Source: Alphaproteobacteria bacterium (lineage in GTDB: Bacteria; Pseudomonadota; Alphaproteobacteria; UBA7985). From it: 64,000 bases of DNA. The DNA is taken from assembly GCA_965228345.1 (NCBI GenBank), contig CBDDHH010000003.1, positions 181,806-245,805 of the forward strand. Reading direction: 5' to 3'. The notes below the pieces were generated by a model. The model did no database searches and had not been told where the DNA came from. It saw only the letters and a list, made by a program, of their open reading frames with translations. Shown piece by piece: positions 6,307-32,103 of this stretch. Position 1 is the first letter of the stretch. Each line of letters starts with the position of its first letter. A program made the translations under genes and the position numbers.

Positions 6307-6310
6307 AGGG

Positions 6311-8152: not shown

Positions 8153-8265
8153 AAGTCGATTGGAACAATCGACGCTGGGAACATCCGCGCCAACAAAAGC
8201 CTAAAGCCATGCAACCTATTCAAGACAAAGGCGAATGGCTTAAGGTGCGACGGGCACCTCAAGGG
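8153..8265 (+). repeat. G-element copy G1 (full, forward), about 40-90 nt upstream of terS
   Basis: AAGTCGATTGGAACAATCGACGCTGGGAACATCCGCGCCAACAAAAGCC, followed by ...ACAAAGGCGAATGGCTTAAGGTGCGACGGGCACCTCAAGG. The first half recurs at 35412, 38428 (rc) and 39568. The second half recurs at 34505 (rc) and 38345 (rc). Confidence 0.7.
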
Positions 8266-8350
8266 TTAGAAATATGGTAGGCCAAAGTGCCGGCGAATCA
8301 TTTTGACCTCCCGTTGGCTTTCCCAACTCAAGACACACACGGATGGCTTT

Positions 8351-8734
8351 ATGAAAAATCTCTGTGAGCGGCAGGAGAAATTCTGCCAAGCCTTGGTCAG
8401 CGGCATGAGCGCGACCCAGGCTTACATCAAGGCTGGTTATAGCCCCAAGGGCGCCAACACTTGTGCAGCTAAGCTTCGCAAACACCCATATGTCGCGGCG
8501 CGGCTTGCGGCCCTGAGGGCGGAAAATGCCCATGCCAGCCAAGCCGAGCGTCGCGACTTGCTGGCCCATCTTGAGTGGGTCATGGAAGTGGCCAAGGAGC
8601 AGGGGGCTCTGGGCGACATGATCCGCGCCGTGACCCAGTACTCGAAGATGTGCGGCTATGATGCGCCTGCTAAGGTTGAGGCGGATGTGACTGTTCAGCG
8701 GATTGCACGGACCATTGTTGACCCCCGCAAGTGA
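8351..8734 (+). CDS. Terminase small subunit (P27/Terminase_2-like)
   Basis: The N-terminus MKNLCERQEKFCQALVSGMSATQAYIKAGYSPKGANTCAAKLRKHPYVAARL is the typical HTH region of small terminases. It lies immediately upstream of terL and overlaps it. The start was chosen at the internal ATG 8351; the ORF is open from 8303. Confidence 0.65.
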   Translation: MKNLCERQEKFCQALVSGMSATQAYIKAGYSPKGANTCAAKLRKHPYVAARLAALRAENAHASQAERRDLLAHLEWVMEVAKEQGALGDMIRAVTQYSKMCGYDAPAKVEADVTVQRIARTIVDPRK

Positions 8735-10019
8735 GCCTGGGCTCGACATTCAGACGGCTCGGGTTTTTTTGCCTTTGCTGGAGCCTGCTCGCTACAAGGC
8801 CGCTTACGGCGGGCGCGGGTCGGGTAAGTCGCATTTCTTTGGCGAATTGGCGGTTGAAGAGGCCTTGCGGTTTCCTGGCGAGTGCGGTGAGGGCTTGGCC
8901 TTGGTCTGTGTTCGGGAGGTGCAAAAGAGCCTCAAGGATTCAGCCAAGCGGTTGATTGAGGGGAAGATCCGCGCCTTTGGGCTCGGTGAGCCGCAGGGGT
9001 TTAGGGTTTGGAACGACCGCATCGAGTTGCCCAAGGGTGGGCAGATCATCTTTCAAGGGATGCAGGATCACACGGCGGAGTCCGTCAAGTCGCTTGAGGG
9101 GTTTCATCGGGCCTGGGTTGAGGAAGCGCAGACGCTTTCGGTGACTTCGCTGGAGTTGTTGCGGCCGACCATTCGTGCGCCTGGCTCGGAGTTGTGGTTT
9201 AGCTGGAACCCGAGGCGCAAGGCTGACCCCGTGGACGCCATGCTGCGCGGGGAGACTTTGCCGACCGGCGCGGTGGTGGTGCGGGCCAATTGGGACGACA
9301 ACCCTTGGTTCCCCGATACGCTCGACCAGGAGCGCCAAGATTGCTTGCGCGATGCGCCTGAGATGTATGAGCATATCTGGGAAGGGGGTTATGCGACCGT
9401 GCGCTCGGGGGCTTACTATCAGCGTGATGTGGTCAAGGCGCGGCAGGATGGGCGCCTTGGGGTGGTGACGCTGGATCCTTTGCTGCCGATTTATGCCTTT
9501 TGGGACATCGGCGTGTCCGACGCGACCGCCATCGTGGTGGCGCAGTTTGTGGGCTCGGCGCTCAAGGTGCTGGACTATTATGAGGCCACTGGCCAGCCGC
9601 TTTCGGCGCATCTGAATTGGTTGCGGCAAGCGGGCTATGGGGCGGCCAAGTGTTACTTGCCCCACGACGCTGATCAGCGCGACAAGGTGACGGCCATTCG
9701 GTTTGAGGACCATGTGCGCGCGGCGGGCTTTGCGGTGCAGACCGTGGCCAATCAGGGCAAGGGCGCGGCTTTGAAGCGGGTTGAGACCGCGCGGCGGCTG
9801 TGGCCGTCGATTTGGATCGATGAAGGCAAGGCGGGCGGGCTGATCGACGCCTTGGCCTGGTACCATGAGCGCTGGGACGACAATCGCAACATTGGCCTGG
9901 GGCCGAACCACGATTGGGCCAGCCATGGGGCCGATGCCTTTGGCCTCATGTGCGTGGCGCACGAACCGCCCAAGAGTGGGCGCAGGATTAAGCAAAGGGA
10001 GGTGCCTGTAATCGTATGA
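8703..10019 (+). CDS. Terminase large subunit (PBSX family)
   Basis: Walker A motif YGGRGSGKSHFF about 40 aa from the N-terminus; 438 aa; ATGA overlap with the portal gene. The start codon is uncertain (TTG 8703 or a nearby TTG). Confidence 0.85.
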   Translation: MHGPLLTPASEPGLDIQTARVFLPLLEPARYKAAYGGRGSGKSHFFGELAVEEALRFPGECGEGLALVCVREVQKSLKDSAKRLIEGKIRAFGLGEPQGFRVWNDRIELPKGGQIIFQGMQDHTAESVKSLEGFHRAWVEEAQTLSVTSLELLRPTIRAPGSELWFSWNPRRKADPVDAMLRGETLPTGAVVVRANWDDNPWFPDTLDQERQDCLRDAPEMYEHIWEGGYATVRSGAYYQRDVVKARQDGRLGVVTLDPLLPIYAFWDIGVSDATAIVVAQFVGSALKVLDYYEATGQPLSAHLNWLRQAGYGAAKCYLPHDADQRDKVTAIRFEDHVRAAGFAVQTVANQGKGAALKRVETARRLWPSIWIDEGKAGGLIDALAWYHERWDDNRNIGLGPNHDWASHGADAFGLMCVAHEPPKSGRRIKQREVPVIV

Positions 10020-12517
10020 GTGACATCGACCTAAGCGACGACGTGCAGCTTGCCAGCCATGTGGCGCAGTTGATTGACGGGTGTGAGAAGCATGCCGACG
10101 ATCAGGAGAAGTCGCGCCAGCCGGCGCTGGAGTACTATGACGGTATCATGACCGATACGCCCTTTGAGGCGGGGCGGACGGGGGTTGTGTCGCACGATTT
10201 GCGCGCGGCCATTAAGAAGATCATGCCGACGATCATGCGCACCTTGCTGTCGGGCGATAAGATCGTGGAGTTTGAGCCGGCGGGGCCTGGGCCTGACAAG
10301 GAACTACAAGCCCAGCAAGCGACCGACTATATGAACCATGTGGTTGTGCCCGAAGCGGGCGTTGAGGGGGCGCTTTATGACGCCATTTTTGACGCGCTGG
10401 TCGTCAAGACGGGCATTTTGAAGTGGCGGGCTTACAATCGGCGCGAAGCGACGGTCCAGCAGTACACGAGCCAGAGCGACGCGCAGTTGCTGGGGCTGGG
10501 GGGTGAGGACGGCGTTGAGATTGCCGACCTCGTGAGCGAGCCCGAGACCGACGCCGTGGCCCTGGCCGAGAATCCTGCGGCCATGCGCCATAGTTTCACT
10601 TTGCGGCGGGTGGTCGATCAGGTGGACGTGCGCCTTGAGGCCCTCCCGCGCGGGTCGTTCCTGATCCATCCCACCGCCGATAGCATCGAGGAGAGCCCGA
10701 TTGTTGGGGAGCGGCAGGTTGTCACGCGCTCCGAGTTGGTCAGCCGTGGCTACGACCGCGATTTGGTGGCGAGTTTGGCGGCCTATGCGGGCCGTGACCA
10801 TGAAGAGAGCGACAACCTGGCGCGCAAGGGTGAGGACTGGTCCGACGAGCGGATGCAGACGGCGGCGGCCATGGAAGAGGTCTTGCTCCACGAGGTCTAT
10901 GTGCGGCTTGACTTGGACGGCGACGGCATAGCGGAGTTGCACAAGGTGTGCCTGGCCGAAGGGTCGAGCGAAGAAGGCGCGGGACCTGTGGTGCTGGACC
11001 GCGAGCCTGTTGCTGAGGCGCCCTATGCCAAGGTGATCGCTGAACGCGAGGCGCATCAGTTTGAAGGGCGCTCGCTGGCCGAGGACGTGGTGCCGATTCA
11101 GAAGATCAAGACGGGGTTGGTGCGGCAAACGCTGGATAATTTGGTTTGGGCCAACAATCCGACGCCCGTGGTCGATGGCGGGGCTTTGACGACGCAGGGC
11201 ATTGAGGCCATGCAGAACCCGTCGTTTGGCAAGATCGTTGAGGCCGAGGCGGGGCGGGCCAAGGATGCGGTGCAGTTTTTGACCGTGCCCTTTGTCGGTG
11301 AGAAGTCCTTTGGCATGTTGCAGTACCTGGACGAAGAATTGCGCGAACGCACGGGCGTCACCGACCAGTCGGGCGGGCTGGATCCCGAAGCGTTTCAGAA
11401 CATGACCGCGACCTCGGTGCAGTTGATGGCCGAGAGCGGCATTGCCCAGGCGGAGATGATCGTGCGCTCGCTGAGCCGTGGGATTCGCAAGGCTTTCAAG
11501 GGCTTATTGCGGCTGGTTATTGCGCATTCTGACCGTGAGCGGGCGGTTCGGCTGCGCGGCGAGTGGATCGACTACGACCCCAGGCACTGGGATGTCGATA
11601 TGGACTGTGTGGTCAATGTCGGACTTGGCGCAGGATCGAAGGAGCGGGATCTGGCGGTTTTGCAAATGGTCCATGGGTTGCAGGAGAAGCTGCTGGCGGC
11701 TTTCGGACCTGACAACCCCTATGTGAAGCCCGAGCAGGTCTTTAACGTTTTGGACAAGATCACGGAGACGGCGGGCTTTCCCGATGTGAAGCCCTACTTC
11801 ACGCGGCCTGACCCGCAGGAAGTGCAGGCGCGGCTCCAGGCCGAAGCGCAGAAGCCGAGCGAGCATGATGAGAAGGTGCAGCTTGAGCAGATGAAGGCCC
11901 AAGCCAAGGCGCAGGCGGACATGGCTAAGGCCGAGATTGAGGCGCGGTTCAAGCGCATGGAGATGGACCATCAGATTCAGCTGGAGCGGATCAAGGCCGA
12001 ACAGCAGGCTGCCGCCGCTGCGGCCAAAGAAGAAGCGCAGGCGCGGTGGAACAGCAAAGAGCAGGAATTTAAGGCGCAGCTGGACGCCGCGACTGCTGAA
12101 CGCGACCTGGCCTTGAAACGCGAACAGATGGCGGCCGATACGGCCCTAAGGCGCGAGCAGATCGCCGCCGACGAGCGGCAGAACGCGCTCAACCAATCGG
12201 TGAAGATGCGGATCGAAGCGGCCAAGCTACCGCCCGAGATGCAAGGCGGGCTTGGGGGCTTTGCCGATCAGTTGGATGCCAGCGTGAACGCTCGGCCGAT
12301 TTTGAGCGATATAGCGGCGATTAAGGACAGTTTAGCGGCGATCACGGAGGCCTTGACCAGGGCCGAGACCGAAAAGGCCGCGCCGAGGCAGATCCTGCGC
12401 GACGAAGCGGGTCAGATCATCGGGGCGCAAGTGGTGATGCCCGATGGGACGACCATCGTCAAAGAATTGCAGCGCGATGAACACGGCAACGCCGTTGGGT
12501 CGCGGGTTCTCCACTAG
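10016..12517 (+). CDS. Portal protein (P22 gp1-like) with a long C-terminal coiled-coil extension
   Basis: 833 aa, directly after terL. The N-terminal region (ALEYYDG...GRTGVVSHDLRAAIKKIMPTIMRTLL) is portal-like. The last ~230 aa are A/E/K/Q-rich heptad-like sequence. Confidence 0.75.
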   Translation: MSDIDLSDDVQLASHVAQLIDGCEKHADDQEKSRQPALEYYDGIMTDTPFEAGRTGVVSHDLRAAIKKIMPTIMRTLLSGDKIVEFEPAGPGPDKELQAQQATDYMNHVVVPEAGVEGALYDAIFDALVVKTGILKWRAYNRREATVQQYTSQSDAQLLGLGGEDGVEIADLVSEPETDAVALAENPAAMRHSFTLRRVVDQVDVRLEALPRGSFLIHPTADSIEESPIVGERQVVTRSELVSRGYDRDLVASLAAYAGRDHEESDNLARKGEDWSDERMQTAAAMEEVLLHEVYVRLDLDGDGIAELHKVCLAEGSSEEGAGPVVLDREPVAEAPYAKVIAEREAHQFEGRSLAEDVVPIQKIKTGLVRQTLDNLVWANNPTPVVDGGALTTQGIEAMQNPSFGKIVEAEAGRAKDAVQFLTVPFVGEKSFGMLQYLDEELRERTGVTDQSGGLDPEAFQNMTATSVQLMAESGIAQAEMIVRSLSRGIRKAFKGLLRLVIAHSDRERAVRLRGEWIDYDPRHWDVDMDCVVNVGLGAGSKERDLAVLQMVHGLQEKLLAAFGPDNPYVKPEQVFNVLDKITETAGFPDVKPYFTRPDPQEVQARLQAEAQKPSEHDEKVQLEQMKAQAKAQADMAKAEIEARFKRMEMDHQIQLERIKAEQQAAAAAAKEEAQARWNSKEQEFKAQLDAATAERDLALKREQMAADTALRREQIAADERQNALNQSVKMRIEAAKLPPEMQGGLGGFADQLDASVNARPILSDIAAIKDSLAAITEALTRAETEKAAPRQILRDEAGQIIGAQVVMPDGTTIVKELQRDEHGNAVGSRVLH

Positions 12518-12542
12518 GGGCTGAACGAGGGCAGGCAGAGCC

Positions 12543-12824
12543 ATGGCAACAAAGAACACGGTCGCGCCTGCGGTCAAGACGGGCGACATCATCCAATACA
12601 ACGGCGACAATGTCACGAACATCACCGAGGACAACAGCCTTGTTTATCCGATTTATTTTTCTGTGAGTGCCGGGCCTGCCCCGACGCCAACCGAGGAAGA
12701 GCCCGAGGTGGCAGAGCCTGGCGATGAGGACTCAGACCTGCCCGCCTATCTGCAAGCGACCCTAGAGATCACGGAAACCGCCGAGATCACTGAAATCACC
12801 GAAGTCGAAGAAATCCAAGTTTAG
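12543..12824 (+). CDS. Hypothetical acidic phage protein with EIT(E) micro-repeats
   Basis: 93-aa ORF, co-oriented with its neighbours. C-terminus ATLEITETAEITEITEVEEIQV. Confidence 0.4.
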   Translation: MATKNTVAPAVKTGDIIQYNGDNVTNITEDNSLVYPIYFSVSAGPAPTPTEEEPEVAEPGDEDSDLPAYLQATLEITETAEITEITEVEEIQV

Positions 12825-12839
12825 AAAAGAGGAGAAGTC

Positions 12840-13817
12840 ATGGCCTTTACATCGCGCAAGACGCAAATCGAAGAAGCAATCATTCAGGTCAACGCGCAAA
12901 TGACCGCGATCACGGGCGCGACAAGCGGGCCGCTATCGAGCGACCAAGCCGCCGCCTACGAGCGCCTCAGGGTGACGCATAGCCACTATATCGACCTTCA
13001 CGTCACCGAGGAAGAAAAAGAGGCCGCTGCCGCCGCACAAGCCGCCTATGATGCCATCGATTCAACTGCGGTCTGGACTAAGACTTATGGCGCGGTCGTG
13101 GGTGTCTTTTCAGCCTATCACGGCTATTCAGGTACGGGCGCAACGTCGCAAGTTGGCACCAACCAAAGCGAACAGGCCAGCCACCGCTTTCTAACCATGG
13201 CGGCTTGTGGTGAGGCGTGGGCCGATGAGGATTTATCGTCCAAGCTCAACTTCCAATACACGCAAATGGAAACCAATTGGTTCACGGTGGATCGGCCCTT
13301 CTGGTATTTGGGCGAAGGCTACAACGAGGACGACCAAAGCAGCAGCACCTACACCTATCCGCGCCGCCCGCACTCGTTCGTGCCGCTACGCAATTCGACC
13401 GATGCCGATATTGTGCTAAACGTGGTTTATGAGGCCAGCAGCTATTCCAGCAATTATTCGAATATGGGGTTCAATACGTGGACGCCCGACCTTACGAACA
13501 CCGAATTAGCGACCCATAGCGGCGATGTGGCGGTGACGTTTCAGAACGTCTTTCAATACTCCAGCAACACAGCCCGTCGCGCCTCAAATCAGAATATCAC
13601 CATCCCTGCGGGCAAGTCGATCATCCTGCATTACTGGTCATCTGGCAAGTATCATGCGGATGTGACCAATCACTACACCATGAACTACGTCCACGGGCTC
13701 GACATATCGGCGATTGAGACCATCGATGGGCTTGAGTGCGACAAGCAGATCATGACCAACTTCGGCAAGAATTACAAAAAGGTGGGCAGTTTGTTCCTGC
13801 CCGAGCCTACTGAATAA
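12840..13817 (+). CDS. Hypothetical protein; helical N-terminus and a Ser/Tyr/Asn/Thr-rich C-terminal domain
   Basis: 325-aa ORF with GAGGAG 6 nt upstream of the ATG. Its composition clearly differs from the neighbouring phage ORFs. Confidence 0.5.
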   Translation: MAFTSRKTQIEEAIIQVNAQMTAITGATSGPLSSDQAAAYERLRVTHSHYIDLHVTEEEKEAAAAAQAAYDAIDSTAVWTKTYGAVVGVFSAYHGYSGTGATSQVGTNQSEQASHRFLTMAACGEAWADEDLSSKLNFQYTQMETNWFTVDRPFWYLGEGYNEDDQSSSTYTYPRRPHSFVPLRNSTDADIVLNVVYEASSYSSNYSNMGFNTWTPDLTNTELATHSGDVAVTFQNVFQYSSNTARRASNQNITIPAGKSIILHYWSSGKYHADVTNHYTMNYVHGLDISAIETIDGLECDKQIMTNFGKNYKKVGSLFLPEPTE

Positions 13818-13828
13818 GGAGCCTCCCC

Positions 13829-14083
13829 ATGAGTGACAAAAAAGCAACAGTGCCGACGCGGTGGATTGAGTTTGACGCGCAAGGCAACCAGGCGGGCGTC
13901 GGGATTGATCGCGTTCCTGGGACTTATGAGGCCCCTGCGGGCTATGACCCTGCTGCGGACTTTGCGCGGCTGGTTGACGGCAAGGTGGTCCTGGAGCCGA
14001 ATTGGACGGCGGAGCAGTACGAGGCGCACGAAGAAACCAAGCGCCTAGAGCGGATTGCCAAAGCGGCCAAAGAGGCCGCCTAA
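13829..14083 (+). CDS. Hypothetical phage protein
   Basis: 84-aa ORF with GGAG upstream, in the co-oriented block. Confidence 0.4.
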   Translation: MSDKKATVPTRWIEFDAQGNQAGVGIDRVPGTYEAPAGYDPAADFARLVDGKVVLEPNWTAEQYEAHEETKRLERIAKAAKEAA

Positions 14084-14091
14084 GCTAGGCC

Positions 14092-14631
14092 ATGGCGACT
14101 TATGACGTCACCCTGACGCTGGACAAGTCCGAGATCGGCAAGACGGTCACGGCCCAGCTCTTGCTTGCCGACGCTGACGAAGCGGCGATTGAGGTGACGG
14201 GCTTCACGGCTATGTCGGCGGCGGGGCGCTATGGGGCCAACCTGCCCAGCGACCTAGCGGCGGGCGAGTACCAGATACTTTACTACGCCGACGACGTGTT
14301 CAGGGTTGATGACACCTTGACCTGGGACGGGTCTGCTATCGTTGAAGGCGGCGGCGAGCCCGTCACTCTGGCCGATGCGTCGGTCGATGCGATTGTCGAG
14401 GCCGTTGAGCGCGATGAAGGGCTTGTGAAGGGGTTGGATGCCAAGGTTGAGGCCTTGCCCGACGCTGACGCCACCGCTGAGGCTGTTTGGACCAAAGAGA
14501 CGCGCACCGTTACGGGCACCCAAGACGACGCGGCTTTGCCCGCCAATGTCAAGTATATCAATGACATAGGCGTCGGTGGGTCGGGCGTTGAGGGCGATAC
14601 TTGGGGGCCGGCGCCTAGCGAAAGCGCTTAA
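14092..14631 (+). CDS. Hypothetical phage structural protein
   Basis: 179-aa ORF, tightly packed. No family recognised. Confidence 0.45.
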   Translation: MATYDVTLTLDKSEIGKTVTAQLLLADADEAAIEVTGFTAMSAAGRYGANLPSDLAAGEYQILYYADDVFRVDDTLTWDGSAIVEGGGEPVTLADASVDAIVEAVERDEGLVKGLDAKVEALPDADATAEAVWTKETRTVTGTQDDAALPANVKYINDIGVGGSGVEGDTWGPAPSESA

Positions 14632-14634
14632 GCC

Positions 14635-15141
14635 GTGACGGCGGTTGTTGACGCCTTCGGCGGGGCCTTTGGCGCGGCTTTTGGGCCTGCCTTTGGCTGG
14701 TCGATCGACGAGCCCGAGACCGCCACCAAGCCGACCCATAGCGGGCGCGTTTGGGTTGGTGGGCAGTGGGAGGACGAGGACGATGACCCGCTGGCCACCA
14801 TCGAGGATGCGCTCGACTATCTGAACCGCAAGCCCAAGCTGACCAAGGCGGCGCGGGCCAAGATCAAGGCCAAGATCGAAGCGGCGCGCAAGGTGGCGGA
14901 GAAAGCCGCCGCCGAACAAGCGGCCCAGCAAGCGCGCATGACGGCGCAGGCGGCCCGTGAGAGTGCCGCAAGCGCCTTGCTGCGGGATCTGCCGCCTTTG
15001 CCCGATTTGGACGCGCAGCGGGTGAGTTTGGTGCGCTTGCGGGCTTGGTTTGTCGAGTTACGGGCGCGGATCAGCGCTTTTGAAGATCACAAGCGCGCCG
15101 AGGACGAGGCTGCCATATTTTTGCTGCTGATGGATGACTAG
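14635..15141 (+). CDS. Hypothetical phage protein
   Basis: 168-aa ORF with a GTG start, 3 nt after the preceding stop. Confidence 0.4.
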   Translation: MTAVVDAFGGAFGAAFGPAFGWSIDEPETATKPTHSGRVWVGGQWEDEDDDPLATIEDALDYLNRKPKLTKAARAKIKAKIEAARKVAEKAAAEQAAQQARMTAQAARESAASALLRDLPPLPDLDAQRVSLVRLRAWFVELRARISAFEDHKRAEDEAAIFLLLMDD

Positions 15142-15370
15142 ACTTAGCCAAGGGGAGGCGCTGGCCCTCCTGCACAATACCACGCTCATGGCGCTCCTGG
15201 ACCAGATGGAGGCCGATGCGCTGAACCTGGCCGTGAACGCCAGTGCCGATGAAGATTCCCGCCGTTTGGTCGCCTGCACGCGCGCCAAGGCGTTTCGAGA
15301 TTTGAGACGGAAGTTGACGACCCTTTCCGAGGGCAAGACCAATCCCGCCTCAGATACGCGCGACGGATAG
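15134..15370 (+). CDS. Hypothetical phage protein
   Basis: 78-aa ORF overlapping the previous ORF by 8 nt. Confidence 0.4.
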   Translation: MTRLSQGEALALLHNTTLMALLDQMEADALNLAVNASADEDSRRLVACTRAKAFRDLRRKLTTLSEGKTNPASDTRDG

Positions 15371-15408
15371 CCGTCCCGCGTTACCAACCTTTCACAAAGG
15401 ATTGAGAC

Positions 15409-16335: not shown

Positions 16336-16364
16336 CCACTCTCTAACCTCGAAAGGGTAAAACT

Positions 16365-17354: not shown

Positions 17355-17373
17355 GAGGCTGACCAACTGGGAA

Positions 17374-17397
17374 GGGGGCTTAGCGGCCCCCTTTTTT
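17374..17397 (+). terminator. Rho-independent terminator after the capsid gene
   Basis: GGGGGC-ttagcg-GCCCCC followed by TTTTTT. Confidence 0.8.
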
Positions 17398-17495
17398 GTA
17401 ACATTTGCACTTGGGGCTTGAAATATGAGGGTCGTATCCTTAGTGAAAGAGGTCCGTGAGGGGTTTGGACTTTCTTTGAGTTGAGGTGATGACGG

Positions 17496-18050
17496 GTGTT
17501 TGACTTAGCCAAGGCTGCCCACATGGTCGCGTTTTTTGCGCTCAAAGCGGGTCGAAATATCAACCTTATGAAGGTCGTCAAACTGGTTTACCTTGCAGAT
17601 CGGGAAAGCGTGAAGCGGATTGGTGCGCCCCTCTTACACGACGCGCGAGTCTCCATGCCGCACGGACCTGTTAACAGTGGCGTTTTGGACGCCGTGAATG
17701 GCGCCTATGACGATCCAAGATGGCGATCAGTGCTAAGGGATCGAGCCCATCATTACATTGGTGTTCAGCCAGGCATCCGCGAAGATGATCTTGATGAGCT
17801 GTCCGACTACGATGTTGAGGTCATGGAGGCGGTTTGGCAAGAGTTTGGCGCTATGGATCAGTGGGAGCTTAGCGATTGGACCCATAACAGCAACAACGTT
17901 CCTGAATGGACGAGCCCAGGTGGGGGCGCGCAACCCATCCCAATGCAGAAATTTTTTGAAGGCGTTGGCTGTGAGGACCCAGAAGGAGCGTCCGCGACTT
18001 ATCTTGCTTCCGAGGCTTATCTTAAGTTTATTCACCCGACCCACGTGTGA
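17496..18050 (+). CDS. Panacea-domain (DUF4065, SocA/GepA-like) antitoxin PanA
   Basis: The N-terminus VFDLAKAAHMVAFFALKAGRNINLMKVVKLVYLADRES...MPHGPV matches the DUF4065 pattern (x-hKLqKLlYhad...., GPV). GTG start with GAGGTG upstream. 4-nt GTGA overlap with the next ORF. Confidence 0.75.
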   Translation: MFDLAKAAHMVAFFALKAGRNINLMKVVKLVYLADRESVKRIGAPLLHDARVSMPHGPVNSGVLDAVNGAYDDPRWRSVLRDRAHHYIGVQPGIREDDLDELSDYDVEVMEAVWQEFGAMDQWELSDWTHNSNNVPEWTSPGGGAQPIPMQKFFEGVGCEDPEGASATYLASEAYLKFIHPTHV

Positions 18051-18436
18051 TCCAACCCAAACAGGTTTACTACCTGGAGACGCTGCTTTCAGGTCGCCCA
18101 GGTCATACGCGCTCGCACTATACCGTGGTTGTTTTTGTTGAGGATGATCGCGCGCTTCTTGTTCCCATATGTAGCAAGCGGCCTCATGCCTACGACCCCA
18201 CGGTGGAGCTAGGCCCAAACGAATACCCACGGCTCCGCCATGCGTCGTTTGTCGAGTATAGCAAGGCCGACTTTATAAGCTTAGGGCATTTGTCGGAACA
18301 AATTGCAGCAGGCCTCGCGCGGCCTTGCGAAACCTTAAATGCGCAAGTGTTCTTGCGGATCAAGAACGGGCTTCTAAACTCGACCTACACGAAGAGAAAA
18401 ATCAAAAATTGGGTCAAGGGTCGCGCGGCCGAATAG
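18047..18436 (+). CDS. Candidate toxin partner of PanA (unknown family; weak MazF/PemK-like N-terminal pattern)
   Basis: 129-aa ORF translationally coupled to PanA (GTGA). QVYYLE...GHTRSHYTVVVFVEDDRALLVPICSK resembles the beta-barrel core and the vPxTS motif of PemK-like toxins, but the match is not secure. Followed by a terminator. Confidence 0.5.
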   Translation: MIQPKQVYYLETLLSGRPGHTRSHYTVVVFVEDDRALLVPICSKRPHAYDPTVELGPNEYPRLRHASFVEYSKADFISLGHLSEQIAAGLARPCETLNAQVFLRIKNGLLNSTYTKRKIKNWVKGRAAE

Positions 18437-18500
18437 GGCCAGGCTTGGCCGTCGCGCGAACTTTCGAATTCTATCCGCTGACAAGCTAGACCGAAACTTG

Positions 18501-18522
18501 AGGGGCCAATGGCCCCTTTTTT
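18501..18522 (+). terminator. Rho-independent terminator after the PanA/partner pair
   Basis: AGGGGCC-aat-GGCCCCT followed by TTTTT. Confidence 0.75.
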
Positions 18523-18546
18523 ATTGCTGAGTCTTGGGGGGGTGGG

Positions 18547-19647
18547 ATGTTGAAAATTGACTCGCCCATGCTGGCGAATCCCCATACGCCGCTTGACGTG
18601 GTTGATTTCGTTGAGCCGAAGCACTCAAAGGCCCGTGTTCGCCTTGCTGGCGACGTTCTCAAGCAAGCTCATGACCAAGTCAGCGACGAGTTGACCGACG
18701 CTTTCTCTGTCGCCTATGCCTGGCGTGACGCTCATGCCCTGCCTATGTCCGCCATGTTGAGCGAGTTGCGGGGCCTTGTTCGTCGTGGCGGTGGCGTAGG
18801 CTATTGCGCGGCACGACTTAAGCGCATGGCGTCGATACGGCCCAAGCTGGCGCGGTTCAAATTGCGGCTGGCAGACATGCAAGACTTGGCAGGCGCGCGG
18901 GCAATCTTGCCCTCGATCAGCGATGTCGAGCGCGTTTCTGCGCTGCTGGAAAGTGCGCGGTTTGGTCCGTCAAAGCCCGCAGTTGACTATATGGCGGCCC
19001 CAAAAGCGGACGGCTATAGGAGCGTCCACCGCGTCTTGAAGATGGAGGGCCACGGAGAGCGAGCGCCTTGGGGCGGCATGAAGGTGGAGGTGCAGGTAAG
19101 GACGCGGCTGCAACACGCATGGGCGACGGCGGTTGAAGCGCACGACATGATGAGCGGCGAGACCAGCCTGAAGGGCGGCCAAGGCGACGATAGTTGGCGG
19201 CGGTTTTTTGCACTTATGTCGGGCGAGATTGCCGAAGTTGAAAGCGCACCGCTTCCCGCCAGTGTGCCGGAAAACAGATCGGAGCGCCGAGAGGAATTGG
19301 CGCACCTGAACCGCGAGATTGACGCCCTTAGGGTGCTAGAAAGTTACCGCCTAGCGGCGGATGCGGCGGACGCGCGCCCTGATGCTCGCTATTTCTTGCT
19401 GATGCTGGACACGCGCCGAAAGACTGTCAAAATAAGATCCTTCTACGGCATCCTGGACGGCGGCGACGCATACAACCAAAGAGAGGCGAGCGCGACTAGC
19501 ACGGTATTGGTTGAATCGGGCGACGCGAAGAACCTAGCGGCGGCCTATCCAAACTACTTTTTAGACATTCGTGCTTTTGTTGGTCAGGTTCGCGTCTCGC
19601 TGGGCGGCCATGACTTGTCCTGGCTTAGTGAATACGGGCGCTGTTAG
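18547..19647 (+). CDS. RelA/SpoT-domain nucleotide pyrophosphokinase (small alarmone synthetase / toxSAS-like) with a ~160-aa C-terminal extension
   Basis: All synthetase motifs are present: RLKRMASIRPK (RxKxxxSxxxK), DLAGARAI (DxxGxR), DGYRSVH, and VEVQVRTRLQHAWATAVEAHD (ExQxRTxxQHxWA). These span aa 90-200, which is nt 18814-19146. Confidence 0.8.
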   Translation: MLKIDSPMLANPHTPLDVVDFVEPKHSKARVRLAGDVLKQAHDQVSDELTDAFSVAYAWRDAHALPMSAMLSELRGLVRRGGGVGYCAARLKRMASIRPKLARFKLRLADMQDLAGARAILPSISDVERVSALLESARFGPSKPAVDYMAAPKADGYRSVHRVLKMEGHGERAPWGGMKVEVQVRTRLQHAWATAVEAHDMMSGETSLKGGQGDDSWRRFFALMSGEIAEVESAPLPASVPENRSERREELAHLNREIDALRVLESYRLAADAADARPDARYFLLMLDTRRKTVKIRSFYGILDGGDAYNQREASATSTVLVESGDAKNLAAAYPNYFLDIRAFVGQVRVSLGGHDLSWLSEYGRC

Positions 19648-19664
19648 GCATCGCCGTGTTTTTT

Positions 19665-19700
19665 GGCCCGTAACTTTTCGGAAACAGGCCCGTAACTTTT
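19665..19700 (+). promoter_or_regulatory. Two direct copies of GGCCCGTAACTTTT with a 22-bp period, upstream of the resumed phage genes
   Basis: Copies at 19665-19678 and 19687-19700, about 35 nt upstream of ATG 19734 (RBS GAAAGGAA). Confidence 0.3.
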
Positions 19701-19733
19701 TTGATTTCCCCAAAAAAAACGAAAGGAATCCCC

Positions 19734-20024
19734 ATGACAAAGGATGAACTAGAAGCTCTGGGCCGTGAGCATGGCTTGGAATTGGACAAGCGCAAGTCGG
19801 TTGCCAAGTTGCGCGAGGAGTTGGCTGCGGCGGGCGTTGAGGTGCCTGCGGAGGCGGCTGAGGCCGCTGAGCCTGGTGCGGCTGAACCTGGCGTTGATGT
19901 TGAGATTTTGCGCGACGTTTGGGACGCAGGCGGGGTTCGGCAGCGGCGGGGGTCGGTGGTGGCGGTTTCTACCGATACGGCCCTTGAGTGGCTCGAAAAG
20001 GGCCTGGCTAAGCGCGCCGCATGA
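19734..20024 (+). CDS. Hypothetical phage protein (helix-extended-helix, Rho-N/SAP-like N-terminus)
   Basis: MTKDELEALGREHGLELDKRKSVAKLREELAAAG. The start is taken at the internal ATG with an RBS; the ORF is open from 19701. Confidence 0.5.
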   Translation: MTKDELEALGREHGLELDKRKSVAKLREELAAAGVEVPAEAAEAAEPGAAEPGVDVEILRDVWDAGGVRQRRGSVVAVSTDTALEWLEKGLAKRAA

Positions 20025-20362
20025 TTGGGCAACGCGACAGCGCGGGCTGGCAGTGTGTGGGCTTTAACCCGCAAAGCCAAGTGTCCACCTGGATCAAGCC
20101 CGATGGCGACGAGGATATGTTGATCGAAGAACGTCAAGAGATTGGCGCCATCCTCGATCACAACACCGCTGCCCGCAATGTGGCTGAGGCGGGCTGGAAA
20201 GGCGACGGGCTGCACCGCGTTGCCGCCATTCCCATGGCCATGGCCCATGAGCGGGATAGCTTTCTACACGGGGCCTTGCAGGCCCAGGACGCCAAGGCCC
20301 TTGCGGGCGTGTTGAACGATAGCGACTTTGCCAAGCTGCGCACCAAGGAAGGCGCCATCTAG
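20021..20362 (+). CDS. Hypothetical phage protein
   Basis: 113-aa ORF with a 4-nt overlap on the upstream ORF. Confidence 0.45.
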   Translation: MIGQRDSAGWQCVGFNPQSQVSTWIKPDGDEDMLIEERQEIGAILDHNTAARNVAEAGWKGDGLHRVAAIPMAMAHERDSFLHGALQAQDAKALAGVLNDSDFAKLRTKEGAI

Positions 20363-20934
20363 TGATCCAGGACTATGCGGCCCTAATCGCCGAGGTGACG
20401 CTTCGGTCGGGCGTTTCGGATGTTGCGACCCGCGCGGGCCTGTATGTTGGCATGGCCGAGAACGCCCTTTCTAAGCGGCTGCGCGTTGGCGACATGGAGA
20501 CCGAAGCGACCTTGACCACCGACGAGGACGGGCGCGCGGACTTGCCGGCGGACTTTTTAGAAGTGCGGTCGCTACGCACGGCGGACCAGGCTTTGCCGCA
20601 ACGGACCTTGCGAGCCGTTCAGGACGGGGCGGTCTGTGGCTATGCGCTGACGGGCAAGGCTTTGGTGACGAACGAGAAGGAAACGGACCTTGAATTGGTC
20701 TATTACGCCGCTTTGCCTGGCCTAGAAGCGCATGACACCAACTGGCTGCTGGAGCAGGATCCTGAGGTCTATTTGAGCGCGGTGCTGTTTCAGGTCTTTA
20801 TCGCCAATTCCAACCTTGAGGGCGCGCAGGCGGTGACGGGGCTGTTGACGGGGCAGATCGAGGCGCTGAACCGCGACGACTATCGCAAGCGCCATGCAGG
20901 GGCGCGGGTGAATGTGGCGGGGCTTACGCCATGA
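20362..20934 (+). CDS. Phage virion protein (head-tail adaptor or tail-tubular-like, unassigned)
   Basis: 190 aa, overlapping its neighbours. Shares the ..DLP.DF..... pattern with the next ORF, suggesting the two are paralogues. Confidence 0.45.
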   Translation: MIQDYAALIAEVTLRSGVSDVATRAGLYVGMAENALSKRLRVGDMETEATLTTDEDGRADLPADFLEVRSLRTADQALPQRTLRAVQDGAVCGYALTGKALVTNEKETDLELVYYAALPGLEAHDTNWLLEQDPEVYLSAVLFQVFIANSNLEGAQAVTGLLTGQIEALNRDDYRKRHAGARVNVAGLTP

Positions 20935-21533
20935 GTGCTGAGGATGTTTTGAGTCATGTCTTGCTGGCCGTTGGGCTGGATCGGCCTGGGGCGCAGTTGA
21001 CGGCGGGGGACTTTGAGATTGACCAGATCAAAGCCTTTATGAACGAAGCGGGAACGGACATCGCGCGGCGGGCGCAGTGGTCGGGCTTGTTTAAGACGCA
21101 CACCATCGAAGGCGAAGTGTCGGCGGTGGATTTGCCCGAGGATTTTTATCAGATGGCGCAGAATGGGGCGGTGCGGCTGAATAAGGAGGGGTTTTACCCT
21201 GTTTTGCCCGTGCTGGTACCTGAGCAGTGGGCTTTCTTGTCGGCGCGGCCTTCGGCGCAAGCGCACTATCACCTTTCGCAAGGGCAGCTGTTGTTTTCGC
21301 CTGCGCTCGATGAAGATGGGGCGGTCATGGTGTACCTGTCGAGCTGGTGGGTCGAGGGCAAGGGGGCGATTAGCCAGAATAGCGACGAGATCCTGATCCC
21401 CGAACGCCTGGTCGAAAAGGGCACGGTTTGGCGGTGGAAGCGGCAAAAGGGCATGACCTACGATGATTTGCTCGCCGAATTTGAAGCCGACCTTGAGGCC
21501 GAACTGAACGCGGATCGAGGCGCGAGTGCTTAG
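20931..21533 (+). CDS. Phage virion protein (possible paralogue of the preceding ORF)
   Basis: 200 aa with an ATGA overlap. VDLPEDFYQMAQNGAVRL compares with ADLPADFLEVRSLR in the previous ORF. Confidence 0.45.
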   Translation: MSAEDVLSHVLLAVGLDRPGAQLTAGDFEIDQIKAFMNEAGTDIARRAQWSGLFKTHTIEGEVSAVDLPEDFYQMAQNGAVRLNKEGFYPVLPVLVPEQWAFLSARPSAQAHYHLSQGQLLFSPALDEDGAVMVYLSSWWVEGKGAISQNSDEILIPERLVEKGTVWRWKRQKGMTYDDLLAEFEADLEAELNADRGASA

Positions 21534-23169
21534 GATTGCGCCATCGCGGGCGCGGCCCAGCAATCGCACCCCGACAGAATCCGACAAGACCCCCGCCGCC
21601 AAGGCCAAGTCCTACGGCGCTCCAACCGCTGGACTTGTGACCAATCTCCCCCTGGCGGCGGGGATGCCCGCCTCGGCCATTGAGCTTGATAACTTCTGGC
21701 CGACCAGCACGGGCCTTGAGCCGCGCGGGGGCAGCGCCTTGGTCGCCACCATCGAGGGGCCGGTCGAAACGCTGTTCCAGTATCAGGCGGGTGCGCTTGA
21801 GGTGTTCTTTGCCGCCGATGCGGGCAACATCTATGCCTTTGACGGCGACACCTCGGGCGGGGCGGAGTTGTCGCCGGTGGTGACGGGGCAGACCTCGGGC
21901 GATTACTGCGATTTGCATATTCAGAACCAGGGCGGCTCGTTCTTATGCCTTGTGAATGGCGCGGACCCCATGCAGCTTTACGACGGGGCCAGTTGGCAGC
22001 AGGTGACCGATAGTAGCAGCCCCCATGCCATTACGGGCGTTGATACGTCCACCTTGTCCTACACTTGGGCCTATCGCAATCGGCAGTTCTTCATCCAATC
22101 GGGGACCATGAACGCCTGGTATTTGGGCGTGAACTCGGTTTCGGGCATTGCCACGATCTTACCCCTTGCGGGCGTGTTCAACCGTGGCGGGTCGCTGCTG
22201 TTTGGGGCGACCTGGTCCTCCGACAGTGGGGCGGGCATGGACGACCGTTGCGTTTTTGCAACAGATCAGGGCGAGTTTGCCGTTTATGAGGGCGACCCCT
22301 CGGACCTCAGCACCTGGTCTTTGACGGGGGTCTATACGATCGGCAAGCCGCTGGGCAAGCGGGCGCATATGACTGTCGGCGGTGACTTGATCGTTGCGAC
22401 GCACGATGGTCTGATCCCCATATCGGCGGCGACGAGTAAGGACCCCTCGCAACTGACTTTGAGTGCGCTCAGCATCAAGATCGAAGGGAACTGGCGCAAC
22501 GCGGCCCTTGGGACCTATGGCGGCAAGACTTGGGCGCTGGCCAAGTGGTCGGCCAAGAACATGGCGCTTGTTCTGCCGCCGATCGATGGCGACGTCTATT
22601 GCTGGGCCGTGAACCTGACCACGGGGGCCTGGACCAAGTTTTCAGGCTGGGCGGCGGCGACCGTGGCCGTGCTGGGCGACGGGCTTTACTACGGCGGCAG
22701 CGACGGCGCCTTGGTCGCGTGTGACGTTGGCGGCAGCGATCAGGGCAGCCCCTTTGAGTGCCGGGCTTGCTTCGCCTTTGACCATTTGGAGGCCCCTGGG
22801 GCGCTGAAAGTCGCGCACCTGATCCGCTCTAAATGGCGGCGCGGCCATACCTTTGCCAGCAAGCACAGCATCGCGAGCGACTATCGGCCCAATTTCCCGA
22901 CTTTGCCCGCCGCGGCCATCCCCGAGCCGACGACGGCGAGCGACTGGGATGAGGCGATTTGGGATGAAGCCTATTGGAACGATGATCGCGGCGGCTTTTG
23001 GAGCGCCTCGGGGGACTGGGATATAGCGGAAAAGTGGGAAAGCATTTCGGGCCACGGCGAAGTCTTGGCCCCGCAAGTGCAAGTCATCTCAGCGCAGGAT
23101 GTGAAGCTTGCTTGTGAGCTCATCTCCCTCGATCTGACCTACACGGTTGGGGCCGTGCCCCATGGCTAG
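21526..23169 (+). CDS. Large phage tail or nozzle-type structural protein (unassigned)
   Basis: 547 aa with a GTG start overlapping the upstream stop. Gly/Trp/Ser-rich, beta-type sequence. Confidence 0.5.
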   Translation: MLRIAPSRARPSNRTPTESDKTPAAKAKSYGAPTAGLVTNLPLAAGMPASAIELDNFWPTSTGLEPRGGSALVATIEGPVETLFQYQAGALEVFFAADAGNIYAFDGDTSGGAELSPVVTGQTSGDYCDLHIQNQGGSFLCLVNGADPMQLYDGASWQQVTDSSSPHAITGVDTSTLSYTWAYRNRQFFIQSGTMNAWYLGVNSVSGIATILPLAGVFNRGGSLLFGATWSSDSGAGMDDRCVFATDQGEFAVYEGDPSDLSTWSLTGVYTIGKPLGKRAHMTVGGDLIVATHDGLIPISAATSKDPSQLTLSALSIKIEGNWRNAALGTYGGKTWALAKWSAKNMALVLPPIDGDVYCWAVNLTTGAWTKFSGWAAATVAVLGDGLYYGGSDGALVACDVGGSDQGSPFECRACFAFDHLEAPGALKVAHLIRSKWRRGHTFASKHSIASDYRPNFPTLPAAAIPEPTTASDWDEAIWDEAYWNDDRGGFWSASGDWDIAEKWESISGHGEVLAPQVQVISAQDVKLACELISLDLTYTVGAVPHG

Positions 23170-23629
23170 GGTTGCGCCCGTCATGGACCAGGCGCCCACG
23201 GTCAAGCGCTTTGTCGAGCGGGGCCTTTGGGGCGGGGCGCGGCAGTTTGACGACTCTTATGCGGCGATTGGCTTTGCGGATGCGACGCGGGGCCTGATCG
23301 CGGGCTTCATTTATACGGACTGGCAGCCAGAGGCAGGGACGGTCGAACTATCGGCCTATGCGACCTATCGCGATTGGATGTCGCGGAAGGCCTTGGGGAT
23401 CTTGCTCTACGACTATCCCTTTGGGTCGCTTGGCTGTCGGCTGGTGGTGGCGCGGCACAGTGAGCGCAACGCGCCCGTGCGGCGCATATGGCGAGCCTTG
23501 GGGGCGCAGGAGACGCTGATCCCCGAGCTATGGGCCCCAGGCGAAGCAACGGCCATTGCGGTGCTGAAAACCGCCGACTTTGCGGGGACTAAATTCATGA
23601 AAGGACACAGCAAGCATGGGAAAAAGTAA
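23147..23629 (+). CDS. Hypothetical protein, weakly GNAT-acetyltransferase-like
   Basis: 160 aa. The ...RLVVARHSERNAPVRRIWRALGAQETLIPELW pattern resembles the GNAT C-terminal region. Low certainty. Confidence 0.35.
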   Translation: MGPCPMARVAPVMDQAPTVKRFVERGLWGGARQFDDSYAAIGFADATRGLIAGFIYTDWQPEAGTVELSAYATYRDWMSRKALGILLYDYPFGSLGCRLVVARHSERNAPVRRIWRALGAQETLIPELWAPGEATAIAVLKTADFAGTKFMKGHSKHGKK

Positions 23630-24617
23630 GCCTAAGGCCCCAAAGGCCCCCGACCCAATCCAAACGGCAGGGGCGCAGACGACGCAGAACATCGAGACGG
23701 CCAAAGCCCAGCAGATGATGAACAACATGAACCAGGTTAACCCCTACGGCAGCCTGACCTATAGCCAAACGGGGACGCAGACCGTGAAGGGCCCCGACGG
23801 GACGGTTCATGAGATCCCGACCTATACGGCGGAGCAGACTTTGAGCCCCGAGATGCAGGCCCTGTTTGACAAGAATGTCGCCTTGCAAGGGGGCATGGCG
23901 GACTTTGCGGGCCAGCATCTGGCCGATATGCAGGGCAGCGACATTTACGCCCAGGACTATTCGGCAGATCGGCAACGGGTCGAGGATGCGCTTATGGAGC
24001 GCATGAACCCAGGGCTTGATCGGCGGCGCGAAAACCTGGAATCACGCCTTGCCAGCCAAGGGATCCAGATCAGGTCGCAAGCCTATAACCAGGCCATGGA
24101 CGACCTGAACCGCGGCGAGAACGATGCCCGCCTTGGGGCGATTGCGAACGCCGGCCAAGAGCAAAGCCGCATGACGCGCGATGCCATGGCTAAACGCGGG
24201 CAGCAATTCAACGAGATGCAAGCCTTGAGCGGCGGGGCCCAGGTAAACCAGCCAAGCTATCAAATGGCCGCGCCCGCGCAGATCGCGAACACGGACGTGG
24301 CGGGGCTGACTATGAACGCGCATAACCAAAACATGAACGTCTATAACCAGCAGATGGCGCAGCAGAACCAGCTTATGGGCGGGCTGTTTGGCTTGGGCGC
24401 GGCGGGCATCGGCCTCATGTCGGATCGGCGCGTCAAGGAAGATATAAAGCAGGTCGGCAAGACCAACGACGGGCAGAACATCTATTCCTTCCGATACAAG
24501 GGCGGCGGCCCGATTCAGATGGGCCTCATGGCGCAGGAAGTTGAGAAGAAGAAACCCAAAGCGGTCGGGGAGGTCGGCGGCCTCAAGTTTGTCGATTATG
24601 GGGAGGCCTTGGCATGA
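23616..24617 (+). CDS. Tail fibre/spike-type protein with a C-terminal intramolecular chaperone (peptidase S74) domain
   Basis: C-terminus SDRRVKEDIKQVGKTNDGQNIYSFRYKGGGPIQMGLMAQEVEKKKPKAV..VDY is the S74 autoproteolytic chaperone signature. The N-terminal part is Q/N/M-rich. Confidence 0.7.
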   Translation: MGKSKPKAPKAPDPIQTAGAQTTQNIETAKAQQMMNNMNQVNPYGSLTYSQTGTQTVKGPDGTVHEIPTYTAEQTLSPEMQALFDKNVALQGGMADFAGQHLADMQGSDIYAQDYSADRQRVEDALMERMNPGLDRRRENLESRLASQGIQIRSQAYNQAMDDLNRGENDARLGAIANAGQEQSRMTRDAMAKRGQQFNEMQALSGGAQVNQPSYQMAAPAQIANTDVAGLTMNAHNQNMNVYNQQMAQQNQLMGGLFGLGAAGIGLMSDRRVKEDIKQVGKTNDGQNIYSFRYKGGGPIQMGLMAQEVEKKKPKAVGEVGGLKFVDYGEALA

Positions 24618-25030
24618 TGGGCACAAAATCCTTTGGCGGCGGCCAAGGCGGGGGCTACATCTTCGGCGGCAACACGGGCAAGTCTTACGAGGACGTGCAG
24701 CGGATGCGCCAACAGGCCAGCCAGATTTCACCGCTTCAAAACGGAATGCCGCGCAACGTCGGCGAAGGCATCGCCAGCATCGGGCAAGCACTGATGGTGC
24801 GCCACCTTGAGGGCAAGGCCAAGAAAGCCGAAGAAGCAGGGCGAAAGGAAGCTACAAACGCATTTCAGCACATCCTATCGCAGCCGAGGGGGCAATGGGA
24901 CATGGCCCAAGTCGGGGCCTTGTCCGACAACGGCTATTTGAGCGACGCGCAGCGCGGGGCCATGGCGACGTTGTTTCAGCAGGACCTGGAGCGGCGGCTT
25001 GGGGCTTATATCAGCGGCGATTTAAAATGA
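24614..25030 (+). CDS. Hypothetical phage protein; the last 7 codons and the stop are supplied by repeat copy R2
   Basis: 138 aa with an ATGA overlap. The C-terminal YISGDLK* is encoded by the A-type hairpin module (TATATCAGCGGCGATTTAAAATGA...). Confidence 0.4.
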   Translation: MMGTKSFGGGQGGGYIFGGNTGKSYEDVQRMRQQASQISPLQNGMPRNVGEGIASIGQALMVRHLEGKAKKAEEAGRKEATNAFQHILSQPRGQWDMAQVGALSDNGYLSDAQRGAMATLFQQDLERRLGAYISGDLK

Positions 25031-25348
25031 CTCTTTTATTCGCTGGTATAAGGGCCGCGACTGCGGCCCCCGTAGCGGGCTCCAAGCCCGAAGGGCGCAG
25101 GGAACGCCCGCGCCAAAAACACTTGGGCTCCAAGCCCGAAGGGCGCAGGGAACGCCCGCGCCAAAAACAAGCGGCCCCGAGAATAGCTAAGAAAGCGCCT
25201 CGGAGTATAAGCGAAGGCCCCGTCGCGCGGTCGGGCTGAGCGAGCGGTGCAAGCGAGGTGAGACCGCATCAAACAGCCGAAACGCGAAGCGTTTCTGCCG
25301 TGAGACAAAACTCTGCTGAAAATGTCAATTCTTAGCGGAGTTGGTATA
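25007..25348 (-). repeat. Mosaic intergenic repeat, copy R2 (long form, reverse) with an internal 48-bp tandem duplication
   Basis: Its reverse complement aligns module by module with R1, R7 and R11. GGGCTCCAAGCCCGAAGGGCGCAGGGAACGCCCGCGCCAAAAACA occurs twice, at 25077 and 25125. Confidence 0.9.
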
Positions 25349-32102: not shown

Positions 32103-32103
32103 A

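Follow-up and report, generated by a model that had tools for sequence, protein, structure and literature searches.

A phage gene block beside ttcA in an alphaproteobacterium is very probably a recently truncated prophage of a short-tailed phage

The stretch of DNA analysed here, referred to as the window, comprises 64,000 nt (positions 181,806-245,805 of the 1.44-Mb alphaproteobacterial contig CBDDHH010000003.1), and the visible part of the genome is limited to these 64 kb. Between the cellular gene ttcA and a UbiA/FAD-oxidase/SDR/epimerase cluster, the window contains a block of phage-type genes that is very probably the remnant of a recently truncated prophage. An open reading frame (ORF) listing and a six-frame scan show the block to be tightly packed and co-directional on the + strand from 8303 to 25030. 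An earlier reading of the same DNA from its letters alone, here called the sequence-only reading, had described a 16.7-kb co-directional block with terS, terL, portal, scaffold, capsid and S74 protein. This description was confirmed by PHROG and Pfam scans, on which the following gene names are based (lengths in amino acids, aa).

8351-8734, + strand: terS, small terminase subunit (PF03592, 4.9e-12; phrog_51)
8703-10019, + strand: terL, large terminase subunit, intact (PF04466, 9.5e-24; phrog_3717)
10016-12517, + strand: portal protein of SU10 type, 833 aa (PF23899 SU10_portal, 1.7e-176)
12543-15370, + strand: six head-module ORFs of unknown function (93, 325, 84, 179, 168 and 78 aa), matching only phrog_16274 and phrog_12935, both of unknown function
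15409-16335, + strand: scaffolding protein (phrog_3927, 1.3e-68), syntenic with the scaffold gene of phage phiGT1
16365-17354, + strand: major capsid protein (MCP) of SU10 type, 329 aa (PF17236 SU10_MCP, 5.8e-64)
17496-18436, + strand: moron 1, a Panacea (SocA) domain antitoxin-like protein (184 aa; PF13274, 3.2e-19) and a 129-aa partner
18547-19647, + strand: moron 2, a CapRel-like fused toxSAS (RelA_SpoT) putative defence protein, 366 aa (PF04607, 2.6e-17, residues 90-199)
19701-20362, + strand: two small conserved virion-module proteins (phrog_8441, phrog_3982), syntenic with small genes in phages phiGT1 and RHph_Y25
20362-21533, + strand: head-tail adaptor (190 aa) and tubular-tail-A-like protein (200 aa), both with PF24175 SU10_adaptor (phrog_2941, phrog_6013; annotation of phiGT1 gp13/gp14)
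21526-23169, + strand: tubular tail B (nozzle), 547 aa (37% aa identity to phiGT1 gp15 'tubular tail B'; phrog_5107)
23147-23629, + strand: acetyltransferase-like head-assembly or internal virion protein (phrog_4470, 1.1e-29; annotation of phiGT1 gp16)
23616-24617, + strand: structural protein, 333 aa, with a C-terminal S74 intramolecular chaperone domain (PF13884 Peptidase_S74, 2.4e-7; phrog_6121, 1.5e-101), syntenic with phiGT1 gp17
24614-25030, + strand: 138-aa ORF, the 5' fragment of a first internal-virion/ejection protein gene (130 of 437 codons and a repeat-derived end)

The best matches of the portal among isolated phages are podoviruses of 40-44 kb with approximately 41% aa identity, namely Sulfitobacter phages phiGT1 and pCB2047-A/C, Rhizobium phages RHph_Y25 and RHEph18, and EBPR podovirus 2. 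The maps of phiGT1 and RHph_Y25 begin with terS, terL, portal, head genes, scaffold, MCP, small genes, adaptor, tubular tail A, tubular tail B, an acetyltransferase annotated as 'head assembly', and S74. They continue with two large internal-virion/ejection proteins, a tail fibre or spike, endolysin, holin and spanin, and in RHph_Y25 the integrase, repressor and early genes are found further on. A tblastn comparison with every ORF of phiGT1 and RHph_Y25 returned matches in the same gene order within 8.7-24.9 kb only, and no other part of the prophage was found in the window by this search. With the six podoviruses the window shares the late-gene order and the SU10-type portal, MCP and adaptor Pfam families (PF23899, PF17236, and PF24175 twice), whereas aa identity is just 26-59%. 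The upper end of this range is reached by terL, which is 59% identical to that of phiGT1, and an IMG/VR scan with tubular tail B yielded relatives at no more than 38% identity. In contrast to the phiGT1/RHph_Y25 group, the window lacks ejection proteins beyond the terminal fragment, fibres or spikes, a lysis cassette, an integrase and early regions. The sequence-only reading had assigned the block to the short-tail type, which is borne out by the podoviral nature of the nearest phages and by the absence of a tape-measure or tail-tube gene from the block. Its statement that integrase, repressor, replication and lysis ORFs and tRNA genes are lacking also holds: the PHROG and Pfam scans found none of these protein genes in the cluster, and no tRNA is present in the window. 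Exact-protein look-ups with the S74 protein and terS found neither on record.

A far closer relative was found through a search with an ejection-protein homologue. This is contig ctg44548 of the metagenome ENA ERZ25074195, 41,527 bp in length and colinear with window positions 8631-25004 at 97.5% nucleotide identity over 16,374 bp. The divergence is patchy, ranging from 0 to 41 differences per 500 bp. The ORFs of ctg44548, including the Panacea pair and toxSAS, have the same lengths as those of the window, except where start codons were called differently and in the 129-aa ORF, which differs by 2 residues. Unchanged lengths are thus also seen for the portal and all six head-module ORFs, and four proteins, among them the MCP and toxSAS, are 100% identical. 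The 329-aa MCP product is further encoded by the related sequence L004, as shown by an exact-sequence look-up. In silico, the parent of the block is accordingly placed as a phage of approximately 41.5 kb in the phiGT1/pCB2047/RHph_Y25-like podovirus group, with SU10-type portal, capsid and adaptor folds. The block and its relative represent temperate podoviruses of a lineage not yet characterised, from an uncultured group of alphaproteobacteria; their portal is about 41% identical to those of isolated phages.

Some gene calls in the block needed closer attention. The terS ORF opens at TTG 8303, but ATG 8351 is more likely to be its start, as it gives a protein of 127 aa that matches the call in ctg44548. 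The 5' half of terS is an allele unlike that of ctg44548 and resembles the copy in a metagenome-assembled genome (MAG) described below, a mosaic pattern. The 93-aa and 325-aa ORFs share a frame (12543-13817) and were considered as one gene split by a nonsense mutation; this was rejected on account of a strong Shine-Dalgarno sequence 5' of ATG 12840 and the presence of the same two ORFs in ctg44548. For the 547-aa protein, phrog_5107 carries the label 'lysis / amidase', which could mislead automated annotation. A role as amidase or endolysin was dismissed, since its homologues are tubular tail B proteins at the same genomic place and are so annotated in phiGT1.

Homology between the window and ctg44548 stops exactly at base 25004, inside the last gene of the block. 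The breakpoint lies at 25004/25005, and ORF 24614-25030 consists of 130 codons of a 437-codon gene followed by 8 codons and a stop from a repeat. In ctg44548 the same gene is 97% identical up to this point, reads LERRLG at the border and goes on with VSGGPAQMSPLD, the part past the breakpoint beginning VSGGPAQMS, up to a total of 437 aa. In agreement with this, the 138-aa ORF of the window aligns only to residues 4-80 of homologues of 697-743 aa; in the 743-aa first ejection protein of RHph_Y25 the aligned part is residues 5-80. The earlier claim that all ORFs are intact therefore fails for this ORF. The genes downstream in ctg44548 encode a homologue of the relatives' second ejection proteins (910 aa, phrog_5880), a 364-aa protein whose tail-fibre matches are weak, a product of 76 aa, and a 344-aa endolysin with GTA_holin_3TM and Amidase_2 domains. 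Upstream of terS, ctg44548 contains two GP3_package ORFs, an HTH_3 repressor-like gene and two small genes. The window contains no homologues of the 910-, 364- and 344-aa genes or of the upstream phage genes. On the left, homology to the relatives starts at approximately 8349-8368, at the terS start codon, and the left edge of the phage DNA is therefore placed just upstream of this position. An 840-bp non-coding gap separates the block from ttcA.

Both borders are occupied by repeats, which are listed below without strand.

~7480-7826: R1, a dispersed intergenic repeat copy between ttcA and the phage DNA, with inverted-repeat arms I1-I6 and I9 against 24990-25306
8136-8246: another short repeat, immediately to the left of the phage DNA and present again at 35394-35455 and 38378-38467
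25005-~25350: R2, a dispersed repeat copy that takes the place of the remaining prophage; a 45-nt tandem duplication lies inside it at 25077-25169
7480-7826, 25005-25350, 27351-27524, 34580-34757, 35478-35714, 39617-39843, 45830-46060, 52198-52385, 55258-55496, 56837-57006, 61103-61396 and ~62910-62951: copies of the dispersed repeat in the window

R1 and R2 are inverted copies with 78-93% complementarity. The sequence-only reading had noted repeats at both borders, and these are indeed present; they are not specific to the flanks, as R1 and R2 are inverted copies of a dispersed repeat. BLASTN detects at least 10 further copies of this family, amounting to at least 12 in the window. R1 and R2 had been considered as att sites (approximately 300 bp, inverted), which their membership in such a family rules out. 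The repeat is modular, with units of approximately 50-350 bp in varying combinations and about one copy per 5 kb. It reaches a word depth of 10^3-10^5 in metagenome contigs of public runs and is common to MAG OZ245893 and contig L085, two related genome sequences discussed below, with zero Rfam matches. Many unrelated contigs start matching at 25005-25012, which indicates that the breakpoint is the natural end of a repeat unit. At the 25004/25005 join, no sequence is common to the phage gene and the repeat. The position of the dispersed repeat at the deletion border suggests that it drives prophage decay in these genomes, and it may drive rearrangements.

Independent read evidence was drawn from Logan contigs of public runs that hold window sequence, four of which were examined for the right junction. 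One Logan contig exactly covers 7879-8674 and reproduces the left junction without a single difference. Several others match up to 25004 and then run on with TGAGCGGCGGACCTGCCCAGATGAGC, the intact form of the gene. Joints reported between ~7500 and ~25000 in contigs were taken as repeat-to-repeat artefacts and set aside.

The orthologous locus in two related genomes is free of the phage block. The closest other ttcA (85% aa) is located on contig L085, where the flanks, ttcA with the adjacent adhesin gene on one side and ahpC on the other, are 80-88% identical to the window at the nucleotide level. Between them lie DarT/DarG, three unknown genes and etfBA, with zero phage genes. A more distant relative, L086, has etfBA-ttcA-ahpC without an island. 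Both therefore lack the cluster at the ttcA locus, and the identity of the block to the phage contig ctg44548 (97.5%) is far above that of the host flanks. In L085, the DarT/DarG (Macro) pair is found at 8348-9783 of the ttcA-ahpC interval, and this interval looks like a variable defence or mobile-element island.

The sole other close copy of the cluster (77-97% aa) is that of MAG OZ245893, a 3.25-Mb alphaproteobacterial genome, and of its strain variant L097. It adjoins phosphonate genes, its flanks are unrelated to those of the window, and its last gene is the second ejection gene, the fibre and lysis genes being cut off. In the MAG, terL contains an in-frame stop by a Tyr-to-stop change (VLD*YEATG; L005, 10835-10837) and the S74 gene is frameshifted (L003, 12097-13291). 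In L097 the S74 gene is whole, and the ejection gene is present as 698 aa and a 126-aa leftover. The same sister remnant is thus decaying differently in different strains. The dN/dS ratio (non-synonymous to synonymous substitution) is 0.02-0.27 against the MAG copy and 0.13 against L004, with pS (the synonymous measure) from 0 to 0.14 per gene. The sequence-only reading had proposed synteny and dN/dS as a check for domestication. The locus proved not to be syntenic across related genomes, and dN/dS, although low, was discarded as a domestication test, being uninformative for non-orthologous copies with mosaic divergence. For the same reasons, the low values mostly reflect phage evolution with recombination and not selection on a host element.

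On this evidence, window positions 8351-25004 are very probably a recently truncated prophage, an internal fragment of a short-tailed phage that keeps the late-operon genes from terS through S74 and the first 130 codons of the next gene. The block displays the features of a defective prophage: it is colinear with part of a 41.5-kb contig, modules are missing, a gene is cut at the border, and its presence at the locus is specific to the strain or lineage. A recently truncated prophage had been named by the sequence-only reading as the alternative to its own preference, and this alternative gains its support from the near-identical full-length ctg44548. The same reading had envisaged that an intact homologous phage might reveal one deleted arm; ctg44548 is such a relative, except that sequence is missing from the window on both sides. 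As a course of events, a repeat element may have inserted into, or recombined with, the prophage at the border, and recombination or illegitimate deletion would have removed approximately 19 kb on the left, with the functions of integration, immunity, replication and late control. On the right, at least 6 kb for ejection, host recognition and lysis would have been lost. That none of the retained ORFs differs in length from its counterpart in the full-length relative speaks for a recent loss. The fragment alone would be unable to make infectious or transducing particles, since the window lacks a late activator, the native promoter region, fibre and lysis genes, and holds the ejection gene as a fragment only. 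Its structural genes may also form a reservoir with which incoming sibling phages recombine, in keeping with the patchy mosaic identity.

Several points weigh against a truncated prophage. The completeness of ctg44548, for example with regard to an integrase, is deduced from its size and from related genomes, the part of it that was read beginning at 16.8 kb. None of the four public runs examined yielded the window-type right junction (24950-25045), which is known from the source assembly alone; this failure is weak evidence, because short-read unitigs break at such repeats anyway. Full-length retained ORFs and low dN/dS would also fit a domesticated element, and ejection, fibre and lysis genes could exist elsewhere in the genome.

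Comparison with known classes of defective elements is in line with a deletion remnant. Defective (cryptic) prophages formed by deletion are exemplified by the remnants in E. coli K-12. Like these, the block is an internal, strain-specific segment without integrase, immunity, replication and lysis genes, with a truncated border gene and with accessory toxin-antitoxin or defence genes. In contrast to them, it is very young, being 97.5% identical to a full-length relative and having no internal pseudogenes yet, and its borders are high-copy intergenic repeats, not insertion sequence elements or att sites. Capsid-forming phage-inducible chromosomal islands (cf-PICIs) carry an integrase, a regulator and a replication module beside their capsid genes. 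The block resembles them in its size of approximately 15-19 kb, its own terminase, portal and capsid, and an incomplete tail. It differs in that no integrase, regulator or replication module is encoded between ttcA and the right flank, in that it encodes tail-tube/nozzle proteins, and in that it is a fragment of a larger phage.

Among the alternatives, it is unlikely, though compatible with a truncated prophage, that the remnant is a helper-dependent module or gene reservoir complemented by a sibling phage of the ctg44548 type, which would supply late activation, ejection, fibres and lysis. On infection by such a phage, or when both reside in one cell, the terminase, capsid and tail genes of the remnant would be expressed, pass into progeny by recombination or provide subunits. 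A 97.5% identical sibling does exist and appears to co-occur, as the intact continuation past 25004 is found in public runs that also hold the exact left junction. Moreover, blocks of 0% divergence alternate with blocks of approximately 13% synonymous divergence and alternative terS 5' alleles are present, which points to frequent recombination among the elements. Such complementation would, however, be a side effect of any fresh prophage remnant and does not amount to a distinct system. Very unlikely is an early exaptation in which the host keeps the head, the packaging motor and the nozzle under selection while a sibling phage or an unlinked locus completes the particles. If true, this would constitute a helper-dependent transducing element of podovirus type, a proto-GTA (gene transfer agent).

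The sequence-only reading had favoured a domesticated, GTA-like short-tailed packaging machine, expressed by the host and packaging host DNA, with ejection, fibre and lysis functions encoded elsewhere. This is now highly improbable. Like GTAs (RcGTA-type, BaGTA, VSH-1), the block is a phage-derived head-tail cluster in a cellular chromosome that brings along no genes for integration or replication. GTA particles take up more or less random host DNA and have a capacity smaller than the locus that encodes them. The structural-only content, the intact terS and terL, the full-length retained ORFs and the low dN/dS all agree with domestication, and characterised GTAs also keep some genes unlinked, as RcGTA does. 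In contrast to GTAs, however, the cluster is neither conserved nor syntenic, with zero synteny even to the nearest genome, and it is of podovirus type. Its last ORF is a gene fragment joined to repeat sequence, the cluster is missing from the orthologous locus, and its sister copy is pseudogenising. Its near-identity to a full-size phage contig leaves almost no time for evolution as a host element, and the patchy, mosaic identity is typical of phage recombination. The criteria for GTAs include vertical transmission with the cellular genome (PMC9662315). Vertical, syntenic inheritance is contradicted by the MAG copy at another locus and by DarTG in its place in L085, and within the window the gene set for delivery and release is incomplete. 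A word-based search of limited sensitivity for an unlinked ejection gene, using the 843-aa ejection protein of the MAG, gave three relatives, none on the 1.44-Mb source contig. The case removes a false lead, as a structural-genes-only block with intact ORFs can mimic a new GTA; here the near-identical full-length relative and the exact breakpoint show a fresh deletion remnant.

An assembly artefact, in which the organism has an intact prophage and the assembly switched into the high-copy repeat at 25004, is extremely improbable: the right junction does lie exactly at the edge of a very deep repeat and was not recovered in runs that hold the intact continuation, but independent contigs show exactly the same left junction, at which approximately 19 kb of phage genes are already missing, phage gene and repeat have no sequence in common at the join that could cause a collapse, and the source contig is 1.44 Mb long.

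Three genes of the block are non-structural and occupy approximately 2.2 kb (17496-19647) between the capsid and neck genes. The sequence-only reading had counted 'several virion proteins' in the block. This stands for the two adaptor/tail-tube proteins, tubular tail B and others, but not for 17496-19647, as the Panacea pair and toxSAS are morons and not virion proteins. They stand where phiGT1 has HNH genes, and phages of this lineage carry both the CapRel-like toxSAS and the Panacea pair immediately after their own capsid gene. The Panacea gene itself comprises 17496-18050 and is overlapped by 4 nt by the 129-aa ORF, 3' of which a terminator scan detected a terminator-like hairpin at 18500-18518. 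Local GC content dips to 0.564 in the region of the pair. In PanA-PanT pairs, an antitoxin with a Panacea domain lies beside a toxin gene in one operon. The 129-aa partner in the window is a putative toxin, with zero recognisable toxin domains in PHROG, Pfam and PADLOC scans.

Over its full length, the toxSAS protein has a match to the PADLOC candidate system PDC-S33 (residues 22-350, E 2.9e-91), and it matches the sequence of PDB 7ZTB (CapRel SJ46) with E 1e-22. It is identical in ctg44548 and shows zero synonymous or non-synonymous differences to L004. CapRel SJ46 is a fused toxin-antitoxin encoded by a prophage and senses the capsid protein of a phage (PMC9712102). The window protein is similar to it in the N-terminal RelA_SpoT toxSAS domain, in length (366 versus 373 aa) and in its location in prophage DNA. 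The predicted C-terminal sensor/antitoxin region differs, being barely alignable (a weak 27-residue alignment), and the similarity is mostly confined to residues 23-267. In CapRel-type proteins, a C-terminal domain of the same polypeptide serves as autoinhibitory antitoxin and sensor, and a phage capsid protein triggers tRNA pyrophosphorylation. The Panacea pair and toxSAS sit directly 3' of the phage's own MCP gene, and CapRel-type proteins sense capsid proteins. This raises the puzzle of how the phage escapes activating its own CapRel-like copy. The parts of the remnant still in use are most likely the Panacea pair and the CapRel-like toxSAS, both of which are self-contained and may serve the host as toxin-antitoxin or anti-phage systems.

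The junction of the two adaptor genes is a second moron hot spot. In the window, the adaptor and tubular-tail-A-like genes overlap at ATGA. In L004 (7694-8920) and L097 (3602-4789), an AAA_16-domain gene encoding 395-408 aa sits exactly between the two. The insertion site corresponds to window position 20934/20931, and both the window and ctg44548 are without this gene. The AAA_16 gene of L004 had zero PADLOC matches.

The left flank of the block consists of two cellular genes.

1-6315, - strand: giant Calx-beta ORF, >2105 aa, with at least 14 Calx-beta repeats, running off the window
6311-7465, - strand: ttcA, a 384-aa ORF

The giant Calx-beta protein is likely a surface adhesin, and its homologue in L085 has 3016 aa. 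The homologues of ttcA span just 66-86% of its 384 aa, and its 3' end overlaps the start of the giant ORF. The excess length may be due to a mis-called start or to a lineage-specific extension.

On the right flank, 27627-34098 encodes a UbiA prenyltransferase with HAD, an FAD_binding_4 oxidase, an SDR, an epimerase, an amine-oxidase-type flavoprotein and an FkbM methyltransferase. The UbiA/FAD-oxidase/SDR trio resembles sugar activation of the decaprenyl-phospho-arabinose type, and the cluster is probably a horizontally acquired glycan-modification island. GC content drops to 0.49 at 32-35 kb. Rfam families gave zero matches in the window, and 20 further ORFs at 32-60 kb belong, according to Pfam, to cellular families only, including fabD/G/F, mltG, a ClC channel, inositol-type catabolism genes and ABC transporters. 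Just 3' of the dispersed-repeat copies at 35.4-35.7 kb, an HNH endonuclease gene (PF14279/PF01844) stands alone at 35788-36381 on the + strand.

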